Of a stretch of 64,000 nt of DNA, positions 22,324-64,000 are shown piece by piece (within the stretch, counting starts at the first letter, position 1; the number at the start of each line of letters is the position of its first letter). The notes under the pieces were generated by a model, which ran no database searches, was not told the origin of the DNA, and saw only the letters and a program-made list of their open reading frames with translations. A program made the position numbers and the translations under genes. This stretch comes from a gamma proteobacterium symbiont of Taylorina sp. (GTDB lineage: Bacteria; Pseudomonadota; Gammaproteobacteria; GRL18). The stretch spans positions 20,045 through 84,044 of the forward strand of contig JAHXIV010000006.1 of NCBI GenBank assembly GCA_025655455.1. The letters run 5' to 3'.

Positions 22324-22353
22324 AGTATTTCTCGATTGGAGTCCTCAGCAAAT

Positions 22354-22417
22354 AAAATTTTTCCGCTGTCGCTTTGCAAACATAATTACCTTGCAAATAA
22401 GACAGCGGATCAATTTT
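22354..22417. repeat. Palindromic repeat, copy A (ccgctgtc...ttgcaaa...gacagcgg)
   Basis: Perfect 8-bp arms at 22363 and 22401; homologous to 36277-36306 and 62326-62370. Confidence 0.85.
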
Positions 22418-22442
22418 ATGTTTTATAAAAATATTTTAAAAG

Positions 22443-34914: not shown

Positions 34915-36270
34915 ATGGAATTAGTCAGCAATTTTATTAGTCAGTTAAATGCTCTGGTATGGGGAAAACCCATGCTGGTGATGATTTTTGGTACCGGTAT
35001 TTTCTTAATGATAGGACTTAAGTTTATGCCGCTGTTGAATATTGTTAAAGCATTTAAGTTATTGTGGCAGGGAAGACAATCAGATGAGAAACAGGCAGGT
35101 GAAATCTCATCCTTTAATGCCTTGATGACCTCATTGTCAGCGACCATTGGAACTGGAAATATTACCGGTGTTGCCACGGCCATTTTTATAGGCGGCCCCG
35201 GAGCATTATTCTGGATGTGGATAACGGCTTTGATCGGCATGGCAACCAAGTATGCTGAAGCGGTTTGTGCCGTTCATTACCGTGAAGTGGATGAACAGGG
35301 CAGTTATGTCGGCGGCCCTATGTATTATATAAAAAATGGTCTGGGGAAAAAATGGTTGTGGCTGGGCTTCTTATTTGCCGCTTTTGGTGCTTTAGCTTCA
35401 TTTGGTATCGGCAATACAGTACAGGCCAATTCAGTTGCACATGCATTGGAAACTCAATTTAATATACCGCTTTGGCTAACCGGTATTGTATTATTGATAT
35501 TAACTGCTGCAGTGGTTTTAGGCGGCATTCAACGTATTGCTCAGGTAGCAGGAAAGCTGGTGCCTTTCATGGCTCTGGCCTATCTTATGGCAGGTCTGGT
35601 GGTTTTAATTACGCACTTTTCTGCTATACCGGACGCTCTGATACTAATTGTTAAAAGTGCCTTTACGCCGGTTGCTGCAACGGGTGGCTTTGCCGGTGCA
35701 AGTATTATGATGGCAATTCAATGGGGTGTGGCGCGAGGTATTTTTTCTAATGAAGCAGGTCTGGGCAGCGCACCTATTGCACATGCTGCAGCCAAAACCA
35801 ATGACCCGGTTCGTCAGGGAACAATTGCCATGCTGGGTACCTTTATTGACACGATTGTGCTTTGCAGCGTAACGGGACTGGCCATTATCTTAACCGGTGT
35901 ATGGACCTCCGGTGCTAAAGGAGCAGCACTGACAATTGCAGCCTTTGATCAGGCAATGCCTGAGGCGGGTGGTGTCGTGGTGAGTATTGCTCAGGCAGTG
36001 TTTGCTTTTACGACTATTCTTGGCTGGAGTGTTTATGGTGAACGCTGTGTAGAATATTTATTTGGTATTCGTTCTATTAAAATTTTTAGAATCTTATGGA
36101 TTCTGGCTGTTCCGATTGGAGCAATGGGAGATCTGAGTTTTATATGGCTGCTGGCTGATACTTTAAATGCCCTGATGGCATTGCCTAATTTAATTGCCTT
36201 ATTACTGCTTAGCCCGGTTATTTTTAAACTGACCAGAACGGCAATGAATAAGAGTTCTTATCAAACATAA
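34915..36270 (+). CDS. Alanine/glycine:cation symporter (AGCS family)
   Basis: GGPGALFWMW, GGPMYYI, FSNEAGLGS. Confidence 0.93.
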   Translation: MELVSNFISQLNALVWGKPMLVMIFGTGIFLMIGLKFMPLLNIVKAFKLLWQGRQSDEKQAGEISSFNALMTSLSATIGTGNITGVATAIFIGGPGALFWMWITALIGMATKYAEAVCAVHYREVDEQGSYVGGPMYYIKNGLGKKWLWLGFLFAAFGALASFGIGNTVQANSVAHALETQFNIPLWLTGIVLLILTAAVVLGGIQRIAQVAGKLVPFMALAYLMAGLVVLITHFSAIPDALILIVKSAFTPVAATGGFAGASIMMAIQWGVARGIFSNEAGLGSAPIAHAAAKTNDPVRQGTIAMLGTFIDTIVLCSVTGLAIILTGVWTSGAKGAALTIAAFDQAMPEAGGVVVSIAQAVFAFTTILGWSVYGERCVEYLFGIRSIKIFRILWILAVPIGAMGDLSFIWLLADTLNALMALPNLIALLLLSPVIFKLTRTAMNKSSYQT

Positions 36271-36276
36271 ACGTGT

Positions 36277-36306
36277 CGCCGTCTTATGTTTGCAAAATGA
36301 CAGCGG
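36277..36306 (-). repeat. Palindromic repeat, short copy B
   Basis: Reverse strand reads ccgctgtcattttgcaaacataagacggcg. Confidence 0.75.
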
Positions 36307-36328
36307 GTACGTTTATTGGCTGAAGGCT

Positions 36329-36850
36329 CTACAAATATTGTCGAATCGTGAGTTCATTGCCCCGTTGAGTGAACTCTAATTGTTTGAGTACGGACATACC
36401 CAATAATATTTCTTCCAGATTGGGTGTGATAATGGCTTTAATATTATAGAGGTGAATTTGACCGATACTGAGTTTGTCTATGCGTGTTTGATAACCTTTA
36501 GTGCGGCCATTGGCTGTGGAAATTGGAATGACATGACCTTTTTTCAGCTTTAGCCGTCTTGTCAATTGTTCTGGTATAGCAACAAAAGTGGCACCGGTGT
36601 CCAGTAGAAAAATAACTTTTTGGTCATTAATTTTGCCCGTGGTGACATAATGTCCGGCACGATTACGCTTTAAAGTGACTTCAATTTGATTATTGCCGGT
36701 TTGAGTGGATTGAACCTGTTGATTGGGATTGTATTGCTTGTCAATTTCACCTTGAAACAGATAGGTCAACAGACCAATTGTCATCATTATAGCAACGATG
36801 ATCATGCCTTTTCCTATGCTATTGGTATTGTTATTAGTTTTAGGGTTCAT
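36329..36850 (-). CDS. Clan AA (retropepsin-like) aspartic protease, TIGR02281 type
   Basis: GHYVTTG, FLLDTGAT, LLGMSVL; N-terminal TM segment. Confidence 0.9.
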   Translation of the reverse strand: MNPKTNNNTNSIGKGMIIVAIMMTIGLLTYLFQGEIDKQYNPNQQVQSTQTGNNQIEVTLKRNRAGHYVTTGKINDQKVIFLLDTGATFVAIPEQLTRRLKLKKGHVIPISTANGRTKGYQTRIDKLSIGQIHLYNIKAIITPNLEEILLGMSVLKQLEFTQRGNELTIRQYL

Positions 36851-57037: not shown

Positions 57038-57097
57038 TTCAGGATAATACACATATCCTTACCCAATGTTGTCAAATTATTTACTTTGCAAACATTT

Positions 57098-58458: not shown

Positions 58459-60135
58459 ATGAATCCTACTCAAAAAAAATTTAATCATCAAAAATACCAG
58501 GCTTTTCCTACTATCAGGATGGATAAGAGACAATGGCCGGATAATATTATGAGACACGCTCCTCAATGGTGTAGTGTTGATTTAAGAGATGGTAATCAGG
58601 CGCTTGTCAACCCATTATCTGTACAACAAAAATTAAAATTGTTCAAAATTTTAGTGGCTATCGGTTTCAAAGAAATTGAAGTGGGTTTTCCATCCGCTTC
58701 TCAAGATGATTTTGTGTTTGTGCAAACTTTAATTAATGATAATTATATCCCGGATGATGTGACTATTGCTGTTTTGACTCCAGCAAGAGAAGATTTTATT
58801 AAACGTACATTTAAGGCATTAACTGGCGCAAAAAAAGCACTTGTTCATCTTTATAATTCCACCTCAAAGGTTCAGCGTGAAAAGGTCTTTAATATGGATA
58901 AAAGCGGTATTACACAAATTGCGGTTCGCGGAGCAAAATTAATGCAGAAATGTGCCAATGCACAAACGGAAACTCAATGGCAATTTCAATATTCTCCGGA
59001 AAGTTTCAGTGGCACAGAATTAAACTATGCGGTTGAAATTTGTAATGCAGTTATCGATGTCTGGCAGCCAGATAGCGAAAATCCAGCCATCTTGAATTTA
59101 CCGTCGACAGTTGAAATGTCAATGCCGAATATTTATGCTGATCAGATTGAGTGGTTTTGTCATCATATTAACAAACGCGATAGTATTATCATCAGTGTAC
59201 ATACTCATAACGATCGGGGATGTGCTGTCGCTGCAGCTGAAATGGCTGTTTTGGCCGGTGCAGAACGGGTAGAAGGTACATTATTGGGTAATGGTGAACG
59301 AACAGGCAATATGGATATCATAACCATGGCGATGAATTGTTATAGTCAGGGAATTGATCCGCAACTGGATTTATCAGATATACGTACACATAGTGAAAAT
59401 ACAAGTTGTTTGATTGATATTCCCATACATCCCCGTCATCCTTATATCGGTGATTTGGTCTATAGTGCATTTTCGGGTAGTCATCAGGATGCGATCAGTA
59501 AATGCCTTAAAAGCTATAAAACAGGAGATAAGTGGGATGTTGCTTATTTGCCGATTGATCCTGCTGACTTGGGACATTCTTATCAGGCCGTTATCCGGAT
59601 TAATAGTCAGTCAGGCAAGGGTGGTATTGCTTATATTATTGAACAGGCTCTTGCCACTCAAATACCCCGATGGTTACAACTGGAATTCAGTCAAAAGGTG
59701 CAGCAACAGACTGAACAGTCAGGATCTGAGTTGCCGGCAGTTGAACTGGTTGATTTATTTAAAAAAAACTACCTGATCTCTAAGAATATCTTGCAGATAA
59801 ATAGTTATCAAACAATAGAAGACATATCAATATTTAATATGACGTATTCAGGCAGACAAATGAATATTCAGGCTGGTGGTGTTGGTATTTTAGATGCCTT
59901 TATTTCTGCATTATCTGAATATTTTGGTCTTGCTATTAATATTATTGAATATAATGAGCAGACACTGCAGCCTGATAGTTCTGCCCGGGCAATTGCTTTT
60001 GTGAGCCTGCAACTTGCAGAGAAATATTTTTCCGGCGCAGCGGAAAATGAAGATATTGTATTAGCATCATTAAATGCTATCTTACAGGCCATATCTGAAT
60101 ATTTAACAGACGATGCCATTAAAAAAGTGGTTTAA
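58459..60135 (+). CDS. leuA: 2-isopropylmalate synthase (LeuA type 2)
   Basis: WCSVDLRDGNQAL, HTHNDRG, FSGSHQDAI, RINSQSGKGG. Confidence 0.95.
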   Translation: MNPTQKKFNHQKYQAFPTIRMDKRQWPDNIMRHAPQWCSVDLRDGNQALVNPLSVQQKLKLFKILVAIGFKEIEVGFPSASQDDFVFVQTLINDNYIPDDVTIAVLTPAREDFIKRTFKALTGAKKALVHLYNSTSKVQREKVFNMDKSGITQIAVRGAKLMQKCANAQTETQWQFQYSPESFSGTELNYAVEICNAVIDVWQPDSENPAILNLPSTVEMSMPNIYADQIEWFCHHINKRDSIIISVHTHNDRGCAVAAAEMAVLAGAERVEGTLLGNGERTGNMDIITMAMNCYSQGIDPQLDLSDIRTHSENTSCLIDIPIHPRHPYIGDLVYSAFSGSHQDAISKCLKSYKTGDKWDVAYLPIDPADLGHSYQAVIRINSQSGKGGIAYIIEQALATQIPRWLQLEFSQKVQQQTEQSGSELPAVELVDLFKKNYLISKNILQINSYQTIEDISIFNMTYSGRQMNIQAGGVGILDAFISALSEYFGLAINIIEYNEQTLQPDSSARAIAFVSLQLAEKYFSGAAENEDIVLASLNAILQAISEYLTDDAIKKVV

Positions 60136-60817
60136 GTGACTGCCATATGGCTTCACTTATCGCTGTCTGTGCTTTTTCATTAGGGTGCAGGCCGTCTGTC
60201 TGCATTAAATCAGGATTAACGGCTATGTTTTCCAGTAGAAAGGGCAATAATAGAAGAGAATATTCTCTGGCCAGATTGTGGTATATCCGATTAAATGCCT
60301 GTGTATATTTTTTACCATAATTAGGAGGAATCTTAATCTCCATTAATAACACTTCAACTTGTGCATCAAGACCAGCCTGAATCAGTAATCTTAAATTTTC
60401 TTTTATATGACTGATGGATAGCCCACGTAAGCCATCGTTGGCACCCAGTTCAATAATCATGATTTCAGGTTGATGTTGTTTTAATGCTTTTGAAAGTCGC
60501 TTGAGACCATTGGCTGTGGTATCTCCACTGATGCTGGCATTGATTAACAGGATATTTTTATCCTGTTGAGCAAATTTTTTCTGCAGCAAATCCGTCCAGT
60601 TGCTTCCCTGAGAAATACCGTAACCCGCACTCAGACTATCTCCCAAAATTAAAATTGTCTGTTTAACCGGTATTTCATAGCTGCAGACAAATTGGTACGG
60701 AAAGGTTATTATTAAAGCCATTAGAACGATTTTGTTCAGAAAGGCAATAGCAATCAATCTTTTTTTTTGTCGGTTGATTCGGGATTTTTTTATAAGGTGC
60801 TGAGTATATAGCGTCAT
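60119..60817 (-). CDS. tesA: GDSL/SGNH arylesterase-thioesterase
   Basis: GDSLSAGY, ELGANDGLRG, DGLHP. Confidence 0.9.
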   Translation of the reverse strand: MTLYTQHLIKKSRINRQKKRLIAIAFLNKIVLMALIITFPYQFVCSYEIPVKQTILILGDSLSAGYGISQGSNWTDLLQKKFAQQDKNILLINASISGDTTANGLKRLSKALKQHQPEIMIIELGANDGLRGLSISHIKENLRLLIQAGLDAQVEVLLMEIKIPPNYGKKYTQAFNRIYHNLAREYSLLLLPFLLENIAVNPDLMQTDGLHPNEKAQTAISEAIWQSLKPLF

Positions 60818-60838: not shown

Positions 60839-61528
60839 TTGCTAAAGGTTGACAGCTTAACAAAAAATATCACCACACCCAATACCAGACTTGATATTTT
60901 AAATAATATTAATTTTCATCTTAATGCCGGTGAGTCAATGGCGATTACTGGCGCATCAGGTTCTGGAAAATCAACCTTATTATCACTTTTAGCCGGTTTG
61001 GATACACCCAGCTCCGGTCAGATCAGCATTGATGGTCAATTACTGACTGAACTGGATGAAGAGGGTCGGGCATTACTTCGGCAGAATAAAATCGGTTTTA
61101 TTTTTCAGTCCTTTCATTTGATTCCCGCACTGAATGCTCTTGATAATGTGCTGCTGCCATTGGAAATTAAGGGAGAAAAAAATGCACAGGAACAGGCCTT
61201 AATATTATTACAGAGGGTTGGCTTATCAGAGCGTTGTGAACATAAGCCATTGCAATTATCCGGGGGAGAGCAGCAGCGAGTGGCCATTGCCAGAGCTTTT
61301 GCCGGAAAGCCGGAAATTTTATTTGCAGATGAACCAACAGGTAATCTGGATCAGAGCAGTGGTGAAAATATTATTGAACTTTTGTTTCAGTTGAATCGTG
61401 AGCAGGGGACAACTCTGGTGTTAGTCACTCATGATCAATCACTGGCAAAGCTTTGTCAGCGGCACTTTTATCTGGATCATGGCATTCTGATAGAAGTGAC
61501 CTCTTCTCACTTATCTTTTTCTAATTAA
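60839..61528 (+). CDS. ybbA: ABC transporter ATP-binding protein
   Basis: [26 protein letters not shown]; divergent from tesA. Confidence 0.88.
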
Positions 61529-61622
61529 AAGCCATCAGCCTAATGAAATCTTCTACTGTTATTTTGCTAACATACAATTGTTATGGAAATGTTCGATTAC
61601 ATGTTAGATTGGAGTTGGCTGC

Positions 61623-64000
61623 ATGATACAAACTCTCAGACTGACCCTTAAATTATTTAAGCGTGAATTTCAATATGGTGAATTAAGCTTATTATTTTTT
61701 TCACTGCTCATTGCGACAGGAAGCATGAGCAGCATCGGGTTTTTAATCAAACGTATTGATACCTCGATGAGCAGTCATGCCAATCAGCTTAATGGTGCAC
61801 AATTAATTTTAAAATCATCGACTGCAATACCCGATAACTGGTTAGAAAAGGCAAAGGAGCTGGGACTTGCACAGGCTCAAATGCAGATATTCACCAGTAT
61901 GCTGGTGCTTAATAATGAATTTAAACTGGCACAAATAAAGGCTGTTTCGGATAATTTTCCTTTGCAGGGAGAGATGAATGTCAGAAAAAAAATAAACTCC
62001 ACAGCAGCAAAAGCGCCCCCGAAAGGTGAAGTCTGGATAGATAAGCGTCTGGCACTCTTGTTTAAATTTTCTTTGGAAAAGAATAATGATGAAGCCAATC
62101 CAAGAGTGGAATTGGGGGAAGCAGAATTTCAGGTCAGTGGTATTCTTGAGCGAGTACCAGGACAGTCTAATACTCTGTTTAGTATTGCACCAACTGCTAT
62201 GATTAATCTATCTGATCTCTCTTTGACAGAAACCATTCAACCCGGCAGTCGGGTGAATTATCTGTATTTTTTTTCAAATTCCAGTGACTCAGTCTCATCT
62301 GAGACTCATCAGCCAATGAACTTGCCCGCTGTCGTTTTGCAAACATCTTTACCTGCAAATAAGACAGAGGACAAGTTTATGTTTGAAAAGAGCTTGGAAA
62401 AATATCAACATTGGTTAAGAGAAAAATTAAATCCTGGACAATCTCTTCGTTCCGGGGTCGAAGATTTAAAAGCCGTTAATAGCAATTTACAAAAAGCCGG
62501 TAATTTCCTTTCTCTAGCTGCTGTTTTAACAATATTACTGGCGGCAGTAGCAATAATAATTAATGCTCATCGTTATGCTCAGAAGCAATATAAAAACTAT
62601 GCCATTATGCTTTGTCTGGGCTGTAGTGAAAAACGTATTATGCTGATTGAATTATATAAATTATTGACCCTGGGCATTATAGGCAGTATCGCTGGTATTA
62701 TTCTGGGTTATTTTGTTTATCTTGGACTTGTGACAGCCATTGATGAAGTGATATCCATTGATAGTGAAAATAGAGAAAAAATCTATTGGATGCCGGTCTG
62801 GGTGAGTCTGATTTGCGGTTTGTTCTTATTGTTGAGTATTTCCGTGTCCAACCTGCTCCAGTTAAAAAAAATATCCCCCATGGGACTGATTAGAAAAGCT
62901 TCTACTTTCGAAAAAATTTCTGCTGATAATAAAATCTTTATTAGCACTGAAAAGATCAAGAGCATCGGATATTATTTAATGAGTCTTTTGGGCTTATTCA
63001 CTATTTCTGTCTGGTATACCGATAATATTAGCATCACTTCATTATTTTTTCTGGTATTGACTCTGAGTTCTCTGATACTTTATTTTTCAGCACAATTTTT
63101 GTTGACTCATCTTATTCAATGGACTCGTTCCTATCGATTGATAAACAGATTAACGCTGTTAAATTTACAACGTCATAAACAGGCTGTTTTATTACAGATA
63201 ACGACTTTTAGTCTGATTTTTGCACTATTAATTTTAATTTTTTTAGTACGAACAGAATTGCTGGATAAATGGCAGCAGCAATTTCCTGATGAAACACCCA
63301 ATCATTTTGTTATTAATGTGCAAAGTGATGAGAAGGCGGCATTTAATAATTTCCTGCAGCAGCAGGCAATCAAAAGCCAGGGTTTATTCCCTATGGTCAG
63401 AGGTCGGTTAACACATTTAAATTATCGACCAATTAAAGAAAACATACCTGAAACAGCACAGGATCATAATGCCCTGAATCGTGAATTGAATTTGAGCTAT
63501 GCTCCTATATTTGAAGAGATAAAAGATGTAACACAGATTTCAATAGAAAGCAGTCTGGCTAAGGCGCTGGGAATTCAACAGGGAGATCGACTAGGTTTTC
63601 GGGTAGGTTCGCAACAATTAGAGGGAATAGTTGCTCTAATAAGAAAGGTCAAATGGGATTCATTTCAACCTAACTTTTATATTATTTTTTCTCCCGGAGA
63701 GATAGAACAATATCCCATGACCTGGATTGCCAGTTTTTATTTAGCAGAGAATGAACAATACAAACTGAATCAATTAATGGAAAAGTTTCCTGGTATTACA
63801 ATGATTGAAGTAGATGAAATTCTCAAAGAAGTGCAATTTATTATTGATAAGGTATCTAATGCCATAGAAATTATATTTTTCTTTATTATGGGAGCCGGTG
63901 CCTTGATACTGATCTCATCGTTATTATCAACCATGTCATCGCGGATGTATGAAAATGCAGTGATTCGTACCTTAGGTGCCAGCAGTAGACAATTGAGATA
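61623..64000 (+). CDS. ybbP: FtsX-like ABC permease, 3'-partial (absent from the ORF track)
   Basis: GGAG ribosome-binding site and ATG 61623; MIQTLRL...KREFQYGEL; GSRVNY; same frame at window end (RTLGAS). Confidence 0.85.
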   Translation, partial: MIQTLRLTLKLFKREFQYGELSLLFFSLLIATGSMSSIGFLIKRIDTSMSSHANQLNGAQLILKSSTAIPDNWLEKAKELGLAQAQMQIFTSMLVLNNEFKLAQIKAVSDNFPLQGEMNVRKKINSTAAKAPPKGEVWIDKRLALLFKFSLEKNNDEANPRVELGEAEFQVSGILERVPGQSNTLFSIAPTAMINLSDLSLTETIQPGSRVNYLYFFSNSSDSVSSETHQPMNLPAVVLQTSLPANKTEDKFMFEKSLEKYQHWLREKLNPGQSLRSGVEDLKAVNSNLQKAGNFLSLAAVLTILLAAVAIIINAHRYAQKQYKNYAIMLCLGCSEKRIMLIELYKLLTLGIIGSIAGIILGYFVYLGLVTAIDEVISIDSENREKIYWMPVWVSLICGLFLLLSISVSNLLQLKKISPMGLIRKASTFEKISADNKIFISTEKIKSIGYYLMSLLGLFTISVWYTDNISITSLFFLVLTLSSLILYFSAQFLLTHLIQWTRSYRLINRLTLLNLQRHKQAVLLQITTFSLIFALLILIFLVRTELLDKWQQQFPDETPNHFVINVQSDEKAAFNNFLQQQAIKSQGLFPMVRGRLTHLNYRPIKENIPETAQDHNALNRELNLSYAPIFEEIKDVTQISIESSLAKALGIQQGDRLGFRVGSQQLEGIVALIRKVKWDSFQPNFYIIFSPGEIEQYPMTWIASFYLAENEQYKLNQLMEKFPGITMIEVDEILKEVQFIIDKVSNAIEIIFFFIMGAGALILISSLLSTMSSRMYENAVIRTLGASSRQLR
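62319..62377. repeat. Palindromic repeat, copy C, in frame within ybbP
   Basis: 62326-62370 differs from copy A by about 4 substitutions and 1 gap. Confidence 0.85.

Follow-up and report, generated by a model that had tools for sequence, protein, structure and literature searches.

How did the permease gene ybbP of a gammaproteobacterial symbiont come to carry thirty codons that its aligned relatives lack? The gene is an open reading frame (ORF) on the plus strand that begins at position 61623 of a 64,000-nt stretch (hereafter the window) and runs through its last position (61623..64000). The window corresponds to positions 20045-84044 of contig C9 in a 4.51-Mb draft genome of 104 contigs and 37.6% G+C, labelled G000 (C-numbers designate its contigs). 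A sequence-only reading of the window had proposed that a 45-nt palindromic repeat, otherwise intergenic, was inserted in frame into ybbP. We found that the insertion stands but that its size does not, the inserted unit measuring about 90 nt, or 30 codons, rather than 45 nt. The segment is very probably one copy of a non-autonomous, hairpin-forming selfish repeat of ~90 nt, which has multiplied to about 166 copies in G000 and occurs in some sister species as well.

A profile search with nhmmer placed the in-frame copy at approximately 62301..62392 on the plus strand (E 3.1e-22, model positions 3-91), its ends being uncertain by a few nucleotides, and this copy is 94% identical to the family consensus. 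Within it lies the core hairpin, the 45-mer of the sequence-only reading (62326..62370, plus strand), whose arms CCGCTGTCG and TTTGCAAA enclose a 12-nt loop. The net gain in ybbP amounts to 30 codons, 62301-62390, which encode residues 227-256 (ETHQPMNLPAVVLQTSLPANKTEDKFMFEK). When the N-terminal half of the product was aligned with 15 YbbP orthologues, of which nine belong to the genus of G000 and six are more distantly related, exactly these 30 residues were found to be missing from all 15, in agreement with the earlier claim that the stretch interrupts a usual YbbP segment. The insertion site corresponds in these orthologues to a short loop of variable length. Insert-free orthologues were contributed by element-free genomes (G003, G004, G007 and G013) and by element-rich ones (G001 and G006), so that the repeat-free relatives do not carry the segment. 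Complete YbbP frames of the genus measure 837-853 aa, compared with 873 aa in G000. E. coli YbbP (PDB 9ge6_A, E 1.1e-89) also does without the insert: it aligns to query residues 10-221 and 255-848, residues 222-254 remain unmatched, and E. coli residue 203 bridges the gap.

Selfish repeats accumulate in decaying genes and two further copies flank ybbP, which could mean that the gene is a decaying pseudogene and the insert one lesion in a sequence no longer under selection. We give this explanation a very slight probability, because the frame of 873 codons (2622 nt, the first 2378 nt in the window and 244 nt beyond its end) is unbroken, the insert keeps the frame, Pfam FtsX matches the product in two stretches corresponding to both FtsX domains, positions conserved in the orthologue alignment are kept, E. 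coli YbbP aligns, the insert aside, over residues 10-848, and the adjoining partner genes ybbA and tesA are intact. The former (60839..61528, plus strand) is an intact ORF for the ABC ATPase partner with an ABC_tran match; the latter (60119..60817, minus strand) is an intact, divergently oriented ORF for a TesA-like SGNH/GDSL hydrolase with a Lipase_GDSL match. The neighbourhood tesA-ybbA-ybbP brings together the genes that in E. coli encode the YbbAP-TesA type VII ABC complex, of which TesA is the periplasmic partner (PMC12646458). By full-length similarity, domain content and gene neighbourhood, the product of ybbP is YbbP, the FtsX/MacB-type, type VII ABC permease that partners YbbA and TesA.

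A repeat-induced mis-join is conceivable in a 104-contig draft in which several arrays of the repeat are broken by runs of N. The probability that the segment is such an assembly artefact is nevertheless negligible: the sequence on either side of it is collinear with ybbP and keeps a single frame, and insertions of the same type are found again in many genes as well as in other assemblies. Run SRR15112752, assembled independently by Logan, yielded an 873-aa ybbP call and was identical across the 171 nt compared (window positions 62250-62420); the ybbP insert is therefore not an assembly artefact.

Iterated nhmmer searches of G000 returned 172 hits, which reduced to 166 non-overlapping copies at 143 loci. 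Head-to-tail arrays, 14 in number, hold 37 of the 166 copies, with units overlapping by GAG and a period of 87-88 nt; copy counts are lower bounds because runs of N interrupt some arrays. The ~90-nt unit as read from the tandem arrays is GAGCCCTCAGCCAATAAACTTG(T/C)CCGCTGTCGTTTTGCAAACATCTTCACCTGCAAATAAGACAG(A/T)GG(G/A)CAAGTTTATGTTTGATAAGAG, and among 132 full-length copies a length of 90 nt is the most frequent (43 copies). An 18-nt arm motif is over-represented in the window, where it occurs three times exactly, against 0.65 occurrences expected for matches with up to three mismatches. Two of the additional copies listed by the sequence-only reading proved to be genuine. The intergenic hairpin at 22363-22408, which it had likened to the ybbP 45-mer, is identical to it in 39 of 43 aligned columns with one gap and belongs to a full-length copy of a 92-94-nt subfamily (22339..22429, plus strand, E 4.1e-19) located between two minus-strand ORFs. 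The short copy at 36277-36306 is part of a 74-nt derivative with a deleted loop (36256..36329, minus strand, E 2.3e-12), located between convergent ORFs. A third, weaker trace at 57084-57095 had to be abandoned as a chance-level match, since it consists of a bare exact 12-mer (BLAST E 7.1) with no second arm and no nhmmer hit. The "lost base" that was said to make the ybbP copy exactly 15 codons is likewise not specific to this copy: a 45-nt core, one base shorter, is common to an entire subfamily that has the loop CATCTTCACC-TGC and counts intergenic copies among its members.

The hairpin is conserved across the family. Folded as DNA, the family consensus has a z-score of -7.1, and the ybbP copy folded as RNA reaches -35.8 kcal/mol (z-score -4.8). 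The two arms co-vary: among 109 distinct full-length copies, native sequences had a mean folding energy of -27.0 kcal/mol versus -21.2 kcal/mol for chimeras joining arms of different copies (Mann-Whitney p 1e-16). The kinship of the copies feeds into this test, which therefore establishes co-variation of the arms and not a number of independent events. Compensating changes can be seen in single copies, as in C52, where the arms read CTCTTCCTCTG/CAGAGGAAGAG instead of the consensus CTTGCCCGCTG/CAGTGGGCAAG, and in the second of two copies within a helicase gene (C49:18525-18613), which has the altered inner stem TTCTGCT/AGCAGAA. RNAalifold applied to a MAFFT alignment recovered the inner 5-bp stem alone, the outer stem being missed because indels misalign the outer arms. 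The palindrome is imperfect, and at the extreme ends of the element, GAGCC... and ...GATAAGAG, neither sequence is an inverted copy of the other. A scan of the ybbP copy and of the copy at 22339-22429 detected no intrinsic terminator, and the Rfam 15 covariance models gave no match at E up to 1 in the interval 61400-62700. The second small hairpin that had been reported upstream of the core does exist: the palindrome AGTCTCA-TC-TGAGACT (62291..62306, plus strand), read from the sequence, has 7-bp arms and a 2-nt loop. It spans the 5' junction of the element, combining ybbP sequence with the element's first bases, and is possibly due to chance.

The insertion into ybbP is one of many. We took a census of copies that lie wholly within long open frames and are flanked on either side by coding sequence, relying on Pfam and orthologue checks and not on a gene caller, and leaving unclassified a few copies near the starts of menC, dsbA and a lytic transglycosylase gene. 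At least 18 internal in-frame copies were found in 16 genes of G000, ybbP included, hence at least 17 in 15 other genes. Fifteen of the 18 are read in the same sense frame, s1, and yield approximately the peptide SPQPINSPAVVLQTSSPANKTVGEFMFDKS. Their hosts are, besides ybbP, the genes hisC, pepN, ribD and an rluA-like pseudouridine synthase gene, the genes for a CHAD protein and a DUF255/DsbD_N protein, mutL (C6:69166-69255, in the inter-domain linker), a hybrid histidine kinase gene (between the two receiver domains), a gene for a 2047-aa helicase (two copies), the gene for V-ATPase subunit E (a short copy of 62 nt), one ORF without a Pfam match and prmC, in which two tandem copies 87 nt apart (C29:39725-39901) are both in frame within the N-terminal domain of PrmC. 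The prmC pair represents an array grown inside a gene. The three remaining copies are read in antisense frames, a0 in rsmJ and in an alpha/beta hydrolase gene and a2 in an FGGY kinase gene; a partial antisense copy is also held by a NUDIX/DUF4743 gene. Every same-genus orthologue that covers the hisC site is without the insert, and the same-genus orthologues of rsmJ lack theirs entirely or for the most part. Pfam domains span or flank the inserts in 13 more genes. According to Pfam, the mutL and histidine kinase copies both sit in inter-domain linkers.

Why should one frame dominate? In the strictly defined 90-nt subfamily (n=28), 22 members are exactly 90 nt long, nine are coding, and frame s1 is open in 23, whereas the remaining sense frames, s0 and s2, are nearly always closed (one and two open cases). 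The 92-94-nt subfamily, with 21 copies, has no coding member. The s1 bias results from the stop codons that close the other sense frames together with a length divisible by three, and selection then removes the copies that do not fit in frame and length. One or two antisense frames of the element are also often open.

The encoded peptide is much alike in unrelated proteins and across species, and 15 of the 18 coding copies share one frame, as could be expected if the 30-residue unit were a selected peptide module (a linker, a binding or a sorting motif) whose spread is adaptive and whose intergenic copies are by-products. We regard this as very unlikely. About 11% of the copies are intragenic and about 89% are intergenic or in arrays; coding sequence usually takes up a much larger share of a bacterial genome than 11%. 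Conservation tracks the hairpin, and compensating changes in the arms alter the peptide, for instance in the helicase copy at C49:18525-18613 and in the CHAD copy (C28). The three internal copies in antisense frames encode unrelated peptides, the host proteins are cytoplasmic, membrane or periplasmic without a common theme, and the frame bias is accounted for by the stops in the other sense frames.

The distribution of the repeat across the genus is patchy. BLAST hits are many in G000, number 21-27 in G001, G006 and G014 and one to five in six genomes, and are absent from seven. Carriers include the metagenome-assembled genomes Pseudomonadota bacterium CSMAG_1671, Gammaproteobacteria bacterium MAG-626 and Proteobacteria bacterium C1.bin.13, and two intergenic copies were found in one metagenome of the Joint Genome Institute (JGI). 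In-frame copies recur in the sister species, in hrpA and mutL of G001 and in genes for a waaC/waaF-type heptosyltransferase and a 1536-aa protein of G006. The mutL copy of G001 (C41) is located in the C-terminal domain, at another position than the linker copy of G000, and the two represent independent hits on one gene. The parallel to the Rickettsia palindromic elements (RPEs) drawn by the sequence-only reading is supported by these copies in other genes of sister species and by the at least 18 in-frame copies in 16 conserved genes of G000.

How could a protein such as YbbP accommodate the insert? The sequence-only reading had expected a surface loop, and the structure prediction made for YbbP agrees with this. 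An AlphaFold2 model of residues 1-433, built on a 16-sequence alignment (mean predicted local distance difference test score, pLDDT, 75), comprises in order a first transmembrane helix (TM1, 20-56), a mixed alpha/beta periplasmic domain, a strand (212-218), a coil, a helix (247-268) and a second transmembrane helix (TM2, 278-331). The pLDDT falls below 50 at residues 221-248, between the strand 212-218 and the helix 247-268. The insert is thus predicted to form a floppy loop, its C-terminal residues extending the following helix, and the model places it in the first periplasmic (Porter/Sabre) domain as described for E. coli YbbP (PMC12646458). Asp145 and Asp148, the published TesA contacts of E. 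coli YbbP (PMC12646458), are situated elsewhere in the sequence than the insert, as far as linear position goes.

These features suggest how the coding copies persist. The commonest length of the element, 90 nt, equals 30 codons, and its single stop-free sense frame encodes roughly the s1 peptide. Where a copy lands in this phase, and in a surface loop or linker able to tolerate it, it would neither shift nor end the host frame, and for this reason would not be removed by selection. The ybbP copy would have landed in the variable-length loop of the first periplasmic domain, between the strand RVNYLYF and the helix preceding TM2, and would be translated as a 30-residue, probably disordered loop. 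The insert would then be tolerated and YbbP presumably still at work, the element itself moving, or having moved in the past, as DNA.

With regard to how the element spreads, the flanks of 80 non-tandem copies showed no direct repeat identical on both sides of a given copy, i.e. no target-site duplication. A MITE (miniature inverted-repeat transposable element) producing target-site duplications was rejected on this ground. Directly before the first GAG of 80 dispersed copies we observed a (G)ATAA consensus, with T at -3 in 76% and A at -1 in 67% of them, which resembles the element's own 3' end GATAAGAG; this flank could mean that the element prefers such targets, or that a terminal direct repeat is present in degenerate form. 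Four matches to Y1_Tnp were detected in G000, none of them within 3 kb of a copy, and across the genus the presence of Y1_Tnp does not track the abundance of the element. A Y1 transposase of the RAYT type (REP-associated tyrosine transposase, REP standing for repetitive extragenic palindromic sequence) was accordingly rejected as the mobiliser, its genes being neither adjacent to the copies nor matched to their abundance in the genus. G014 contains 68 Y1_Tnp matches of the IS200/IS605 type, many with internal stops, which looks like a bloom of insertion sequences followed by decay and unrelated to the 90-nt element. A phage vehicle is unsupported, the core pattern having no exact match in viral contigs. 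The orientation of the copies showed no bias with respect to local GC skew (Fisher p 0.38-0.86), a weak proxy for the replication strand in a draft genome, and no gene recurs between inverted pairs of copies.

Several points weigh against the selfish-repeat interpretation. The copies display no hallmark of transposition, be it a target-site duplication, a linked or correlated Y1 transposase or a strand bias. With no more than 68% identity to the closest orthologue, the empty site of ybbP is not restorable to the base, and the copy measures 92 nt from GAG to GAG, compared with a net gain of 90 nt. Transcription and translation through the insert are something that we infer. Finally, by a rough estimate, the chance that a given frame of a 90-nt AT-rich sequence is free of stops is about 0.1; an open frame is not improbable by chance, and coding compatibility need not be an adaptation of the element.

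A more far-reaching possibility is that we are dealing with an active mobile element of undescribed mechanism, which integrates without target-site duplication beside sites resembling its own 3' end (ATAAGAG), is moved by an enzyme other than Y1, has recently spread between species and owes its design of 30 codons with one open frame to selection for a "stealth" trait. Integration beside ATAAGAG-like sites would account for the (G)ATAA motif that precedes dispersed copies as well as for the GAG-overlapping arrays. The ground for a recent spread is that copies from G006 match the consensus of G000 at up to 96% identity, although identity between housekeeping proteins is only 63-81%. We consider this scenario as a whole speculative and rather unlikely.

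The selfish repeat has left further marks on the neighbourhood of ybbP and on other loci. The spacer between ybbA and ybbP is taken up almost entirely by a degenerate copy (61530..61609, plus strand, E 7.3e-4, model positions 2-86), and just outside the window, 68 bp past the ybbP stop codon, lies a full copy (C9:84357-84448). The gene is consequently bracketed by a degenerate copy on its 5' side and a full one on its 3' side, three copies falling within 2.9 kb. Elsewhere in the window, the minus-strand copy at 36256-36329 overlaps the 3' end of the plus-strand ORF 34915-36270 (451 aa) and supplies its last four codons and TAA stop, and the repeat therefore also reshapes C-termini. Arrays of four to six or more units, interrupted by N, were observed at C5:44942-45493, C2:78748-79385 and C53:8717-9043; in the C53 array, frame s1 stays free of stops over 118 codons or more and would yield a spurious repeat "protein" in automatic annotation.

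Among known systems, the closest likeness is to the RPEs, for which the review literature, as far as its account extends, describes an unusually frequent in-frame insertion into unrelated genes (PMC10969869; Ogata et al. 2000, 2002). According to the same account, RPEs resemble the 90-nt element in being multi-copy palindromes found both between genes and in frame inside unrelated housekeeping genes, in adding with each copy a conserved peptide that, by prediction, the host fold can accommodate, and in lacking a known mobilising enzyme. They differ in residing in reduced alphaproteobacterial genomes, whereas the present element inhabits a 4.5-Mb gammaproteobacterial genome, and in unit length, ~100-150 nt compared with ~90 nt. 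Unlike RPEs, the 90-nt element forms head-to-tail arrays with GAG overlap, including the in-frame tandem pair in prmC, and its intragenic share of ~11% appears lower than that reported for RPEs. The 90-nt element behaves like an RPE; we do not claim homology to RPEs.

Occasional in-frame fusions are listed by the review for enterobacterial repetitive intergenic consensus (ERIC) sequences, QMITE1 and Anabaena MITEs (PMC10969869; PMC5896051). ERIC and other small mobile sequences of enterobacteria are, like the 90-nt element, gammaproteobacterial imperfect palindromes of ~70-130 nt with open frames and occasional in-frame fusion, as relayed in the available accounts (Delihas 2007 via PMC10969869; PMC3184786). 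In those accounts the intragenic ERIC copies are rare exceptions, in contrast to at least 18 internal copies in one genome here, the comparison being one of descriptions only. QMITE1 and QMITE2 of Coxiella burnetii are gammaproteobacterial MITE-type repeats as well, and QMITE1 overlaps annotated ORFs and encodes peptides, but they measure 150-400 bp, have direct repeats of 2-11 nt and, in the case of QMITE2, contain a GTAG REP (PMC5896051); the 90-nt element has neither a target-site duplication nor a GTAG/CGTC head. REPs and REPINs mobilised by RAYTs share with it a short palindromic structure, a high copy number and a sometimes clustered arrangement, but REPs are 20-40 nt long, have GTAG or CGTC as their head and lie on the flanks of a RAYT gene (PMC3733652), whereas the Y1 genes of G000 are not adjacent to the copies. 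We conclude that the family is new and that it belongs to a kind of element already known.

Rickettsia and Wolbachia are the best-known hosts of palindromic repeats that code for protein, and such repeats have been linked to the reduced genomes of intracellular bacteria. The ybbP locus led to a well-populated family of this kind in a gammaproteobacterium with a 4.5-Mb genome and in related bacteria, all of them known solely from metagenome-assembled genomes. For annotation, the repeat generates spurious ORFs in arrays, and its 30-aa "inserts" may be mistaken for lineage-specific domains. For biology, it offers a second, independent system in which to ask how such elements move, why proteins tolerate them and whether they seed new peptide sequence.

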